Below are positions 8,092 through 49,022 of a DNA stretch of 64,000 bases, one piece after another. Position 1 is the stretch's first letter; each line of letters opens with the position of its first letter. The translations under genes and the position numbers were made by a program. Below the pieces are notes generated by a model. It was given only the letters and a program-made list of their open reading frames with translations, was not told the origin of the DNA and ran no database searches. The stretch lies in assembly GCA_000091205.1 (NCBI GenBank), contig AP006498.2, one strand, 5' to 3'. This DNA comes from Cyanidioschyzon merolae. Taxonomy: Eukaryota.

Positions 8092-8364
8092 ATGAATGTT
8101 CACCAATTGCTTGGGAAAGTCGCGTTCCCTCTGCTTGTGCTGGGCGCTGCAGCCTTTCTGGATTGCAGACCGCTGCCATACCAGTGTCGTGCTCAAGGTG
8201 CGAATCCAATCCAAACTCTCTCCTGGTCTCTGAGTTTTCTTGCATCGACATGCTGCAGCGTTTCAGTACAAGGCCCGTACTGTGCACTGAACGATGCCCT
8301 CGAACGCTCGCTCGACACAAAGCCGCTGCACGCTCCTGAAGAACAAGTCTCTCGCGCGTGTTGA
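8092..8364 (+). CDS. Hypothetical small secreted cysteine-containing protein (90 aa) with a predicted signal peptide
   Basis: Internal Met at 8092 of track ORF 7891..8364 starts a signal-peptide-like 'MNVHQLLGKVAFPLLVLGAAAFLDC', followed by a Cys-containing segment. I recognise no homology. It could be a chance ORF. Confidence 0.15.
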   Translation: MNVHQLLGKVAFPLLVLGAAAFLDCRPLPYQCRAQGANPIQTLSWSLSFLASTCCSVSVQGPYCALNDALERSLDTKPLHAPEEQVSRAC

Positions 8365-8761
8365 TCATGACGTTCTAGTTGCGATGCGTACAATGCATAT
8401 GCGCACTGTTACAGGTGGAGACACAATACCAGAGCAAGCTGCAGAGCTTGGATTGCCTCTCCATCCGAGGTTCAGTCAGCTTAGCGTGCACCGTCTGGTG
8501 CAGCGTTCTCCGTTCGACTGCCTTTTTCCCTATTTGTTTCGGAACGCATTCGTTCTCGTGATGTGTGGACGTCTGCCTGAGCGCACGGACGGCAAGCTTA
8601 CGGCATCGATTCATGTGCTCGGTGGACGCTCTCCTCGACAGGGCGGAAACGCAGGCTCTGCGCAGGATGGCACGTCGGATGCCACAGGCGACCTCCAAAG
8701 CGCACGACCTGACGGTCATTTCCATCGCAAATTATTCAAGAAAGTGACGAATATACGCTTC

Positions 8762-40948: not shown

Positions 40949-41168
40949 ACTGGGGTGATCAGTGCGTGTTTTGGGCTTGTGTGCTAGAACCAGATATTAC
41001 CACGACGTTGGATTCTGAGATTCGGACTATATGGCATAGGAGCGCTCGTGTGGGTTTTGTATCGGATGGGATTTGACGTCACGGGAATTTTACGGATGTC
41101 TCGTGGTCAACGGGTGCGCGAATAGACAAGTCTATGGTGCTGGAAGCGGGCATGGCGTGAAGATATTC

Positions 41169-41192
41169 AAAAAATGGACGGAACTGGAAAAA
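41169..41192 (-). terminator. Pol III-type T-run terminators (T5 at 41188-41192 and T6 at 41169-41174 on the minus strand) immediately downstream of the tRNA 5'-half segment
   Basis: The plus strand shows 'ggaaaaag' and 'tcaaaaaatgg'. On the minus strand these are runs of 5 or more T, within 10-35 nt of the end of the tRNA-like segment. Confidence 0.4.
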
Positions 41193-41202
41193 GATTTGAT
41201 TT

Positions 41203-41316
41203 GGAATCGAACCCACGGCCATTGGATTAAAAGTCCAATGCTCTACCGCTGAGCTACGTTGGCTGCGCACGGCGCGTCGAATGCTCAATTCGCGGTGCGA
41301 TCGCCAACGGTGGGGA
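41203..41316 (-). tRNA. trnK-UUU: Circularly permuted tRNA-Lys (anticodon UUU) gene. The 3' half (T-stem 3' strand + acceptor 3' strand, 41303-41315) lies upstream of the 5' part (acceptor 5' strand through T-loop, 41203-41263), separated by 39 nt
   Basis: Minus-strand read of 41263..41203: 'GCCAACG TA GCTC AGCGGTA GAGC A TTGGA CTTTTAA TCCAA TGGCC GTGGG TTCGATT CC'. This is a perfect cloverleaf through the T-loop with anticodon TTT, but no complementary 3' strands follow. Upstream on the same strand, 41315..41303 reads 'CCCCAC CGTTGGC', which pairs with T-stem 'GTGGG' and acceptor 'GCCAACG', followed by discriminator G. Confidence 0.6.
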
Positions 41317-41345
41317 ATTCGCAGCAATGTACATTGTTCAAAATT

Positions 41346-41356
41346 GATATATATAG
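41346..41356 (-). promoter_or_regulatory. TATA-like element ('gatatatatag') about 30-40 bp upstream of the permuted tRNA 3' half; candidate Pol III upstream promoter
   Basis: Position and sequence only. Upstream TATA elements are typical of permuted/split tRNA genes lacking an intact internal A/B box arrangement. Confidence 0.3.
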
Positions 41357-41996
41357 ACATGGTTTGAAGCGTGCAGAGAATCGCGGCAACGTGTTGACGC
41401 TGGTGCGTGCACGGCACTCGCATCAGATTCCAGTGGAACGTTGAACTGCTCGTTCTGTTCCTGAATCTCTTTTTTTTGTATATTTAGTCTTTATTTTCAA
41501 TGCGCAGCAATAAAGGCTTACGGATTCACGGGTAATTTTTGGGTGCTCGGTTTTCGTTTTTGCGTAGCTCATTCGAATCTCACGTCGATGGCCTGCGTTG
41601 CGTCACTGGAATCCAGCGCATTCGCGACGCCCTCAAGCGGCGGTTCCGCGCCTAACACATATCATCACCATCATCATCCAGTTCCTATGGGTAAGCTTGG
41701 ACGCTTCTGATTTGCTTATGTGTAGCATGCGCACATCATGTATGCTGCATGTTTTCCATCATTCTGTTTCATGGCGACTCGTAGGTGCAGTAACTCGCAT
41801 CGCTAATTTGATGGGATATAAACGCGACGTCGTTTCTTGATGACTTGTTCACAAGCTCAAGTCGGAGGTCCACTAAAGTCGTCACATAAAATAAACGTTT
41901 TTCAAAGAAACAAAGTCTCCGCTCTCTACCGCCATCGGCCAAACGTTATTCGTGAGCACCTTGATGCCCTTTGAGTTATGCTCTGAGAGACTCGTA

Positions 41997-43402: not shown

Positions 43403-44437
43403 ATGGCGCTCGCTGGACAGGGAGACCCTCGCTGGATTGTGCAAGATCTTGGGAAGCAGGGTAAAAATGTCGGCAACTGGCACTGGACTGAGCGAGATAT
43501 CAGTGTTTGGGCGATGGAGCGACTGCGTTCTCTGCTTCAGGAGGATCCGATCGGTGAACTGCGACTCGCAGACGACACTGTTCAGGTGCAAGTCACGGGC
43601 TCTCCAAGCGTGCACGGGGACTGTGCCCTTTACAACCGCAAGGGCAAACTGCGAAGCGTGTATGACTTGAAAGTTCAGGCGGACTGGGAGGCACGATCTC
43701 TGGCGACGAACGCAGTTTGCGGGAAAGGCACGATCGAGGCGGAGCTCTTCGACACCGACCCTGACGTCACGATAACCCCAACAGGTACGTGGGAACACAG
43801 CGCTCAACTGGTTTCATTTTTAACGCTCGACGGGAAGTCTTGGTTGCACCGGGTTCTCGAGCGCTTCCAGGCTGAGGCGCTGCAACTAGGGACCGGAGAC
43901 ACCGGGTCGACAGTTGCTGGCCAGTCGCAGGCAGCTGAGGCGGTGAAAAATGCAAACAAAGACCACGCAGGGAATACCGCTGCGACGTCGGGTGTGCAGC
44001 AGCCGGAGCAAAGCACGCAATCCACGTGGACAAGCCTTCACATGGAGGAACGCTTTAGGGCACCGCCCAGCGTGGTCTTTCGAGCACTCACCGCTGTGGA
44101 GGAGCTGCAGCGAATCACGCAAGCGCCTGCAACCAGCGATACGACAAGCTCAAACGGAACATTCTCTCTTTACGCCGGTCAGGTTCATGGTAGCTATACG
44201 AAATTGCAGGAGCCAGAGCTTATCGAGCAACGATGGCGTATGGCCGACTGGGTGCCTCGCGATCACTACTCTCGGGTGCAAATGCGTCTCAAAGCCGTCT
44301 CCGACGATGAGACGCTCCTTGTCTTGCAACAAGATCAGATACCCGAGGAATATCTCGAACGGACCCAAGTTGGCTGGAGAGAACGTATCTTTGCGCAGCT
44401 GCGCCTGATGTACAATCTCGGTAGTGCCTATGTGTAG
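43403..44437 (+). CDS. AHA1: Activator of Hsp90 ATPase (AHA1/AHSA1)
   Basis: N-terminus 'MALAGQGDPRWIVQDLGKQGKNVGNWHWTERDISVWAMERL' matches Aha1 'MAKWGEGDPRWIVEERADATNVNNWHWTERDAS.W'. The C-terminal AHSA1/START-like domain is present. 344 aa. Confidence 0.85.
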   Translation: MALAGQGDPRWIVQDLGKQGKNVGNWHWTERDISVWAMERLRSLLQEDPIGELRLADDTVQVQVTGSPSVHGDCALYNRKGKLRSVYDLKVQADWEARSLATNAVCGKGTIEAELFDTDPDVTITPTGTWEHSAQLVSFLTLDGKSWLHRVLERFQAEALQLGTGDTGSTVAGQSQAAEAVKNANKDHAGNTAATSGVQQPEQSTQSTWTSLHMEERFRAPPSVVFRALTAVEELQRITQAPATSDTTSSNGTFSLYAGQVHGSYTKLQEPELIEQRWRMADWVPRDHYSRVQMRLKAVSDDETLLVLQQDQIPEEYLERTQVGWRERIFAQLRLMYNLGSAYV

Positions 44438-46319: not shown

Positions 46320-49022
46320 ATGAAGCTGAGAGACGCCCCAGAACGAGGCGAGACTATGAAGACAGAAGATGCGCGTTGGCAAACGACTTTTCTCGAGCTC
46401 GAAAACGCAGTACGTTACGTAAGTGGCTCGGAGCCTACTCCAGCTCCGTGCAACAGTACCGGCGTTTACGCTGACGTAGAGCTGTGGCTCGATCGAGAGC
46501 TTTTCGAGTCTCTCGCTGAGGGGAGAAACGCACCGCAGACACAACCGAGTGCAGCTGCACTGTCGGGGAACAGTACGCCTTCCCGGCAAACGCAACTGCG
46601 CTCCGTGCGACCGTATCCACTCTTGGATGCGTTCGTATCCGCAGGTATTAACCATGAACCCGATGGTACATTGATGCATGGATCCACGTCGCGTCGTGCT
46701 GGTGACCAGCACGTGCAGTCACGGAACGTCGCCGAGGGGCAGTTGCGACCTGCGATGCCCGAGCCGTCGCACCCTGTTCACAAGCGTCGTCGCACCGCAG
46801 TGGTCTTCCAGAGTCGCCACGAGATCTCTCAATACCTAGAAGCTGCCCTAGATGAACTAGAACGGGAAGCGGAGGATGGCGTCACAGCGGATGCCGATGC
46901 CACGGGAGGCAACGCCTCCAGCGATGTCGTAGCAGATGCATCCCATCTGGAGTCACCTAGAAAAGTTGGACGGGGAGCAGTTGCCGGAACGCGCGAGCAC
47001 AAAACCTTGTCAAGTACACGAACTCGACCCGAATCCATTGAGCAAGCGCTGCTTCGCATTTACGCAGAATTGAGACAACGAGTTCTCGCTCAAAAATACG
47101 AAACAATCGAGGCGTTTATCGCCGATTTTTCGCTGCTGCTCAGTGATATTGCACGCAGCAGCAAACCAGAGCATACCACATCACGAGTAGCGACACGTCG
47201 CAGAACAGACCTCATCCGTCAAAGGGTGGACAGCTTGCTTCAACCAGCAGAAATGAGCCGCATCATGGCGACCAGCTCCAGCGATCGACCTGCTTCTTCG
47301 GAGGAGCCGGCCATCCTGCCAGCACAACCCGATAAGATCAGCCAAGGACCTCTGCTTCCGTACTGGTACTGGTTACGTGAGCAACTCTCGCTTGACTTTG
47401 CATCCCGAGATGCACTCGGGCCGTGGAGTCTGGCGCTTGATGCAGTGGCGGCGGATCCAGAACATGTCATCCATCCCGAGTGCACCGCGAGCGCACAGGT
47501 GCCGGACCTGCGCGGCGCTGTGCGTCCACCGCTGGCTTCTGTGGAAGGCTATACCGGCTCACTGGCAGTGCAGACTGCAACGAAGGATGTGATCACTATA
47601 CCCAAAGTGTACGAACAGTGGTTGCATCGAATCTACCGCCTGCGGGAACAGAAAGAAGACCTGCAGCAACGCATGAATCGTTTCTACCAACTTGAAGCTA
47701 TGCTCCACGTAGCCGAACGCGACAAAGCTATTGGTGAACAACCAAATGCTCGATGCGCAGAGTTTGTGCGTTCTACACTGGAATCATCACACGTAAGCGA
47801 AAAGAATGCCGTGCGCTCGCAGCAGCTTGAGGCGTCCCAGGGAGCAGCGAACCCCGGAAACGCATCCCAGGAGAAACCCGCTCTGCAATTACATGCGCTG
47901 CGAGCTGCTGACTCAGAGGCGCGCCCCCAAACCAAGGCCATGAGCACTTCACCGAACGCCTCTGTAAGGCTGCCACGACTCGCTGCTGCATGGTCCATGC
48001 CGCTTTTCATTGAGACAGATCGTGAGCCCGACGAGCCGATGCGCTCCACTGCTGGTCTCCTCGGCGTTCCCGCTGCATCAGTGACCGAGTCAGTGCCGAC
48101 TGAAGCGGCTCCGCGACTAGATCAGCGTCCCCGCGGTTTGGTACAAGTCAGTCTGCCGCTTCCGCTGCAGGGCTTGCAGCGCGCAGTTGCGGCGGTCCTG
48201 GTGCTGAGCGGATTCACAGGTGCACATCGCTCCGCGCTCGAGTCGCTTACAGATGTTGTTGCGGAATTGATTGAAGGTCTTGGTCGACAGTTTAGCTGGA
48301 TTCGCTACCAGATGAAGCGTCCGCCAGCTGATCAGCAGTCGTCGTCAGCGGCATCGGCGGAAAGTGGCGCAAAAGCGGCCAGAGTACGCGAGCGAGTCGA
48401 CAAGGTGTCACGCGCGTGGTGGCAAGCACCGCGGGACTACCTCCACCAAAGTCGTTGTGCGTTGCCGGGAGCAGCGGTTGCTGACCCACTCCACTATTTC
48501 GTGTCGATCATTAGCCAGAGTGGTATCCAAGACGGCTTCCACGGCCTCATGCGATACAGTCAGCTGGAATTGCCCGCGCTGGAGCGAGGACTCGCCCAGG
48601 CCGAAGCGCTACTCAGCACAAAGATTGCGGAAACTGAGCACGCGCTGGAGCATCTTGCCCAGCGTATACCAGCGTTCGATGCCCCTGCGGGGCATCTCGA
48701 AGTAGAGAAAAAGACATTCCTGCCGCCTGCACTGCAGGACGGGAACGCGACGATACGCTCTGATGAGGAGCTCGATCCCGAATCGAATCCCCTGTTTCGG
48801 TATTTTGGAATTATCAACGAGTCTGTGACGCTTGATGTGTTGCAACTTGAATACCAGCGCACTGACGCGGTTGCAGTGCCGTATCCCCTTGCGCAGCGCG
48901 TTGTGACGGAGCTCGAAAAGACCCCTGTGCAGCCGGTTTCCGCTGGACACCCAGCTCGGCGCATCACCGTCGTAAGGGCAGCCAGTCGGCGACAGCTTCG
49001 TCCACATGAAGCCGTCTCGTGA
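46320..49022 (+). CDS. Large nuclear protein (900 aa) with a bromodomain-like segment and a BTP (bromodomain-associated, histone-fold) domain. SPT7/TAF-like transcription co-activator subunit (tentative)
   Basis: 'LQRAVAAVLVLSGFTGAHRSALESLTDVVAELIEGLGRQ' resembles the BTP histone-fold of TAF8/TAF3/SPT7 ('...LLTEAGFESAEKAAVETLTEMLQSYISEIGR'). Upstream 'KYETIEAFIADFSLLLSDIARSSKPEH' resembles the bromodomain C-terminal helix ('[26 protein letters not shown]'). The bromodomain-then-histone-fold order is as in Spt7. The rest is not recognised. Confidence 0.45.
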   Translation: MKLRDAPERGETMKTEDARWQTTFLELENAVRYVSGSEPTPAPCNSTGVYADVELWLDRELFESLAEGRNAPQTQPSAAALSGNSTPSRQTQLRSVRPYPLLDAFVSAGINHEPDGTLMHGSTSRRAGDQHVQSRNVAEGQLRPAMPEPSHPVHKRRRTAVVFQSRHEISQYLEAALDELEREAEDGVTADADATGGNASSDVVADASHLESPRKVGRGAVAGTREHKTLSSTRTRPESIEQALLRIYAELRQRVLAQKYETIEAFIADFSLLLSDIARSSKPEHTTSRVATRRRTDLIRQRVDSLLQPAEMSRIMATSSSDRPASSEEPAILPAQPDKISQGPLLPYWYWLREQLSLDFASRDALGPWSLALDAVAADPEHVIHPECTASAQVPDLRGAVRPPLASVEGYTGSLAVQTATKDVITIPKVYEQWLHRIYRLREQKEDLQQRMNRFYQLEAMLHVAERDKAIGEQPNARCAEFVRSTLESSHVSEKNAVRSQQLEASQGAANPGNASQEKPALQLHALRAADSEARPQTKAMSTSPNASVRLPRLAAAWSMPLFIETDREPDEPMRSTAGLLGVPAASVTESVPTEAAPRLDQRPRGLVQVSLPLPLQGLQRAVAAVLVLSGFTGAHRSALESLTDVVAELIEGLGRQFSWIRYQMKRPPADQQSSSAASAESGAKAARVRERVDKVSRAWWQAPRDYLHQSRCALPGAAVADPLHYFVSIISQSGIQDGFHGLMRYSQLELPALERGLAQAEALLSTKIAETEHALEHLAQRIPAFDAPAGHLEVEKKTFLPPALQDGNATIRSDEELDPESNPLFRYFGIINESVTLDVLQLEYQRTDAVAVPYPLAQRVVTELEKTPVQPVSAGHPARRITVVRAASRRQLRPHEAVS

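Follow-up and report, generated by a model that had tools for sequence, protein, structure and literature searches.

Can a tRNA sequence that breaks off within its own T-loop be a working gene whose missing end is encoded ahead of it, and, if so, how long has that order been kept? The question is raised by the minus strand between positions 41356 and 41169 of the window, which is the whole 64,000-nucleotide stretch of DNA analysed here. The earlier note had read this region as a tRNA-Lys(UUU) gene circularly permuted in the manner of Cyanidioschyzon and had taken it as a clue to the organism. The present analysis covers the anatomy of the locus, its ability to fold, its organism of origin, its conservation and its covariation. 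The locus is, with very little room for doubt, the single nuclear tRNA-Lys(UUU) gene of Cyanidioschyzon merolae 10D, circularly permuted and of type IV, with its junction at 59/60. The clue to the organism was a good one: the window proteins encoded at 43403-44434 and 46320-49019 match BAM81913.1/XP_005537949.1 and BAM81914.1 (CYME_CMP325C) of C. merolae 10D exactly, which identifies the window as nuclear DNA of that strain. Its GC content is about 55% throughout.

The locus reads as follows, in the direction of the minus strand (BHB, bulge-helix-bulge):

41355..41347, minus: TATA-like element TATATATAT, presumably a TFIIIB-dependent Pol III promoter, starting 40 nt upstream of C60
41326..41316, minus: conserved leader segment UGCUG-CGAA-UU; elsewhere the leader diverges
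41321..41318, minus: leader CGAA, one strand of the BHB central helix
41317..41316, minus: leader UU, forming with C60 the 3-nt bulge predicted to hold the 3' cleavage site
41315..41302, minus: 3' half, C60-G73, 14 nt, comprising CCCCACCGTTGGC at 41315..41303 and the discriminator G at 41302; in order C60, T-stem CCCAC (61-65), acceptor CGTTGGC (66-72) and G73
41301..41264, minus: intervening sequence, 38 nt, joining G73 to G1
41263..41206, minus: 5' half, G1-U59, 58 nt, comprising the acceptor strand, D arm, anticodon arm, variable loop, T-stem and T-loop up to U59
41231..41229, minus: anticodon TTT, within the 5' half
41211..41208, minus: UUCG of the 5' half (U54-G57), second strand of the BHB central helix
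41207..41205, minus: A58 and U59 with the trailer U, the bulge predicted to hold the 5' cleavage site
41205..41169, minus: trailer TCCAAATCAAATC, followed by the Pol III terminators, T5 at 41192..41188 and T6 at 41174..41169

The 3' part lies ahead of the 5' part on the same strand, as had been claimed, and the TATA element upstream and the T5 and T6 runs downstream are present at the positions listed, the first base of the T5 run falling 14 nt past the junction. Two boundaries required correction. The 5' part begins with G 41263, as proposed, but does not extend to 41203; it ends with U59 at 41206, and the TCC that follows is trailer sequence that is unconserved in relatives. The gap between the two parts, given before as 39 nt, is 38 nt from the discriminator to G1 and reaches 39 nt only when the discriminator is counted. 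CCA is absent from the encoded 3' half. When the 5' and 3' halves are joined, they form a perfect 72-nt cloverleaf in which all stems are fully paired; with CCA added, ARAGORN calls this molecule tRNA-Lys(ttt), and its minimum free energy (MFE) structure is the cloverleaf itself (-27.4 kcal/mol). The earlier note had allowed that the upstream 13-mer might be a chance match, and the numbers speak against this: the 12-mer CCCACCGTTGGC occurs once in the whole 64-kb window, and chance alone would place an exact 12-mer complement on the same strand, no more than 200 nt upstream, about 1e-5 times.

The original description of permuted tRNAs in C. merolae, this gene included, is reportedly that of Soma et al. 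2007 (Science 318:450). Table 1 of the review PMC3978253 assigns 11 permuted tRNA genes to C. merolae and enters Lys(TTT) as a permuted, intron-free gene of type IV (59/60) whose intervening sequence measures 38 bp. All four details agree with the locus, which is thus an already known gene; the organism, the anticodon, the TATA and the T-stretch agree as well, so that the proposed comparison with published permuted loci and the joined cloverleaf lead to the same identification. As PMC3978253 reports no other Lys(UUU) gene in the genome, the permuted gene is the sole source of tRNA-Lys(UUU). [quoted passage not shown] These sources also describe circular intermediates and aminoacylated mature tRNAs demonstrated for C. 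merolae permuted tRNAs, with evidence from Northern analysis, aminoacylation and RT-PCR (PMC3978253, PMC3728597); these products, together with the expression of this gene, are taken here from the literature.

The expectation that linear scanners would fail at this locus was borne out. ARAGORN called no tRNA in the 64-kb window, and the Rfam tRNA model gave one match, local only, covering model positions 7-64 at 41257..41198 (40.3 bits). The Rfam E-value scan of the window for further disrupted tRNA genes matched this locus only. A match of the Rfam YrlA (Y RNA-like) model at 41314..41209 was considered and rejected, its score being 18.3 bits against a gathering threshold of 69 and its content tRNA-like only. 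A B-box consensus, GGTTCGATTCC, is recreated at 41213..41203 (minus) by the end of the 5' half together with the trailer TCC, and occurs nowhere else in the window; it is not recreated by the trailers of Cyanidiococcus and L136, which are described below. Because C. merolae is described in PMC3978253 as being without recognisable TFIIIC box-binding subunits, this B-box is probably a relic rather than a working internal promoter.

The MFE structure of the 148-nt precursor is a permuted cloverleaf in which the acceptor stem is capped by the spacer hairpin (-48.9 kcal/mol, z = -2.35). Within the BHB, the T-stem serves as helix h, and the central helix is formed by UUCG:CGAA, four base pairs in which the leader is a perfect complement of U54-G57; the two bulges are of 3 nt each, A58-U59|U on one side and U-U|C60 on the other. 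In this register the junction falls at 59/60, in line with the published record. The folding check that had been suggested therefore came out in favour of the motif, but with a qualification. The outer BHB helix (h') of C. merolae is weak, reaching 2-3 pairs at most, and constraining the junction to the BHB costs 1.4 kcal/mol relative to the free MFE, the free fold favouring a leader-trailer pairing, GAAUU:GAUUC; the weak outer helix and the alternative free fold indicate a BHB of the relaxed kind. In the relatives introduced below, the constrained junction lies within 0.5-2.7 kcal/mol of the free MFE, and the free MFE structures of C. yangmingshanensis and L136 are themselves BHB-like, with an outer helix of 4-6 bp. 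The 38-nt spacer of C. merolae folds as one hairpin (-15.4 kcal/mol), and 2% of shuffled sequences fold as well as it does. A conserved functional hairpin in the spacer was considered and rejected: the 38-39-nt spacers each fold as a single hairpin whose energy does not clearly surpass that of shuffles (p = 0.02, 0.16 and 0.17), the Cyanidiococcus spacers not significantly so, and the L136 spacer is 4 nt long.

[quoted passage not shown] Pol III, recruited via the upstream TATA, would make a single RNA, about 140 nt long and terminated at the T5 run, in which the leader is followed by the 3' half (C60-G73), the 38-nt intervening sequence, the 5' half (G1-U59) and the trailer. Transcription would start near 41326, about 29 nt past the first base of the TATA, a position with which the environmental haplotype L132 agrees, because it is rewritten everywhere upstream of 41326. 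The two halves would then fold into a cloverleaf, with the intervening hairpin closing the acceptor stem, and the leader CGAA would pair with U54-G57 to create the relaxed BHB. Cleavage of both bulges by the tRNA-splicing endonuclease and joining of U59 to C60 by a ligase would generate a 110-nt circular RNA, from which RNase P and tRNase Z would remove the 38-nt intervening sequence at the acceptor stem. Addition of CCA would complete a tRNA-Lys(UUU) of 72 nt (75 nt with CCA).

Variation within Cyanidioschyzon follows the boundaries of this RNA. Environmental contigs were retrieved by an exact-protein look-up of the neighbouring Aha1 gene, and five Cyanidioschyzon haplotypes, comprising the window and environmental sequences, were compared. 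When the TATA, CGAAUU and both halves are counted as functional, variable sites number 0 of 87 at functional positions against 17 of 192 elsewhere (Fisher p = 0.002). The contigs concerned (L001-L003 and L129-L134, from JGI, ENA and Logan metagenomes) carry Cyanidioschyzon DNA about 99% identical to 10D over the locus; public metagenomes thus offer natural haplotype diversity of C. merolae, a model alga.

Further loci were reached through Aha1 homologues, and three other lineages were found to carry the gene:

L004, 8643..8534, minus: Cyanidiococcus yangmingshanensis, GCA_013995675.1; Aha1 56% identical to that of C. merolae
L005 (also L006-L008), 8468..8358, minus: second Cyanidiococcus-like lineage, GCA_041825655.1 and metagenomes; Aha1 70% identical to that of C. 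yangmingshanensis
L136, 335..259, minus: deeper lineage, Logan assembly SRR17651693; Aha1 41% identical to those of C. merolae and C. yangmingshanensis; GC 53%

The truncated tRNA-Lys match of L004-L008 is flanked by the ANAPC10 and Aha1 genes and runs on the opposite strand from Aha1, and in L136 the permuted tRNA lies just upstream of Aha1, likewise on the opposite strand, the 2-kb contig ending before the ANAPC10 side. The permuted layout is found in L004-L008 and in L136 alike, so that a type IV gene divergent to Aha1 is the form shared by C. yangmingshanensis, the second Cyanidiococcus-like lineage and L136. A further homologue, L137 (Aha1 34% identical, GC 70%), had no tRNA near Aha1. 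As a control only, metagenome DNA was scanned with the very general pattern GCTCAGNGGTAGAGCNNNGGACTTTTAATCCNNNGG, which returned at least 120 loci, none of them from Cyanidiales among the matches listed; among these listed matches, the loci readable far enough downstream were all contiguous tRNA-Lys(UUU) genes, the ordinary form of the gene, and three were cut by the end of the contig.

The mature halves of L004-L008 are identical to those of C. merolae, and the leader CGAA, the TATA and the T-runs are present. In the alignment, the invariant blocks are the TATA region, the leader CGAA[A/U]U, which is invariant in all lineages, the 14-nt 3' half, which is unchanged in the 8 haplotypes aligned, and the 58-nt 5' half, which stops exactly at U59. 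The remaining leader, spacer and trailer sequences are unrelated from lineage to lineage. Across the four lineages, the spacers measure 38, 38, 39 and 4 nt, the last being that of L136, the distances from the TATA to N60 are 40, 38, 38 and 38 nt, and T4-T5 runs start 11-18 nt past the junction in every case. The mature sequence of L136 carries compensatory changes at 28:42, 29:41 and 4:69 (A:U to G:C), of which 4:69 spans both halves; the complementarity, which the earlier note had wished to see survive in related strains, is thus retained across the permutation. Pair 5:68 of L136 is a U-U mismatch, which is either real or an assembly error. Between G73 and G1, L136 has only CCAC, and since G73 is followed directly by this sequence, CCA may be genome-encoded in that lineage. 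Just past the TATA core, CA[A/G]TT occurs in all four lineages (TATATATCAATTTTGA, TATATACAGTTTTGA, TATATCCAGTTTTAG and TATATAGCAATTCGC; 41338..41355, minus, in the window), and may represent an extension of the promoter in Pol III genes of the Cyanidiophyceae.

These comparisons bear on three other explanations of the locus. The region could be protein-coding and its tRNA-like sequence incidental, as a 114-aa ORF with an ATG start (41079..41423, minus) runs through the tRNA gene, and equivalent ORFs have been annotated by prokaryote-style callers on metagenome contigs. However, the ORF has no Pfam match, the lengths called on near-identical contigs disagree (36, 45, 114 and 120 aa), haplotype L132 has a 1-nt insertion and clustered substitutions inside it, and conservation tracks the RNA boundaries rather than the reading frame. 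The ORF is almost certainly a spurious product of gene callers, and a coding explanation of the region retains hardly any credibility. Just as improbable is a truncated tRNA pseudogene, left over from a tandem duplication and decayed, whose upstream complement would be accidental or without function. Linear scanners do report just a truncated tRNA at the locus, and permuted genes are proposed in the literature to have arisen by tandem duplication and subsequent loss of the outer parts; yet the exact complement would be an extreme coincidence at the chance expectation given above, and the halves are conserved, with a compensatory change across them, between lineages whose flanks have wholly diverged. 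A decayed copy of the T-loop would, moreover, leave CGAU in the leader, whereas CGAA is found, which suggests that it has been kept for pairing, and PMC3978253 reports no second Lys(UUU) gene in the genome.

A transcript's continuity is not readable from sequence alone, and split and permuted models require the same BHB-type junction, so that the halves might instead be transcribed apart and joined in trans, as in Nanoarchaeum equitans, with neither a permuted precursor nor a circle. Split tRNAs have an archaeal precedent, as discussed in reviews, but in Nanoarchaeum-type split tRNAs each half occupies a locus of its own and has a separate promoter and terminator, whereas the C. merolae halves are 38 nt apart behind a single TATA, and the spacer contains neither a T-run terminator nor a second TATA. 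In all four lineages, the sole TATA lies upstream of the 3' half and T-runs occur solely downstream of the 5' half, and in L136 the halves are merely 4 nt apart. The literature describes single permuted precursors for C. merolae, together with circular intermediates; split tRNAs are not reported there. Joining in trans is accordingly very improbable, if slightly less so than the coding and pseudogene explanations, and the circularly permuted gene is the reading retained here.

Among known permuted tRNAs, the closest relatives in form are the other type IV genes of C. merolae, Ala(UGC) and Arg(CCU), which, according to PMC3978253, share with Lys the 59/60 junction in the T-loop and the same processing pathway; they differ in having intervening sequences of 8 and 23 bp, respectively, instead of 38, and Arg(CCU) has an intron at 14/15. 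The permuted tRNA-iMet and tRNA-Tyr of Thermofilum pendens (Chan, Cozen and Lowe 2011, PMC3218864) likewise have their junction at 59/60, and their very short intervening sequences and encoded CCA resemble the G73-CCA-C-G1 arrangement of L136 (PMC3218864). They are archaeal, however, and differ in having an extra intron at 37/38, another transcription system and another endonuclease architecture. In contrast, the permuted tRNAs of green algae and chlorarachniophyte nucleomorphs (Maruyama et al. 2010) nearly always have their junction at 37/38, in the anticodon loop, and tRNA-Lys is absent among them in the portion of Table 1 of PMC3978253 covered.

Permuted tRNA genes demonstrate that the halves of an essential RNA can be encoded in reverse order and put right via a circular intermediate. 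The C. merolae gene was already known, and the analysis adds nothing new on C. merolae itself; what it contributes is a modest set of comparative data from relatives, and an illustration that reading raw sequence can recover a permuted gene where linear tRNA finders come up empty. That the permutation of tRNA-Lys(UUU) is old, orthologous across the Cyanidiophyceae and not peculiar to C. merolae is put forward tentatively, as a proposition that we place slightly short of evenly balanced. Because syntenic orthologues occur in three other lineages and a compensatory change spans the two halves, the sequence comparison indicates that the permuted arrangement has been held under selection since before these lineages split. 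No description of syntenic conservation of the permuted tRNA-Lys in other Cyanidiophyceae-like lineages was found in the literature searched. If it is indeed unreported, these loci would constitute a dated natural series, with spacers ranging from 4 to 39 nt and outer BHB helices from strong to weak, that could be used to define the requirements of the splicing endonuclease, RNase P and tRNase Z.
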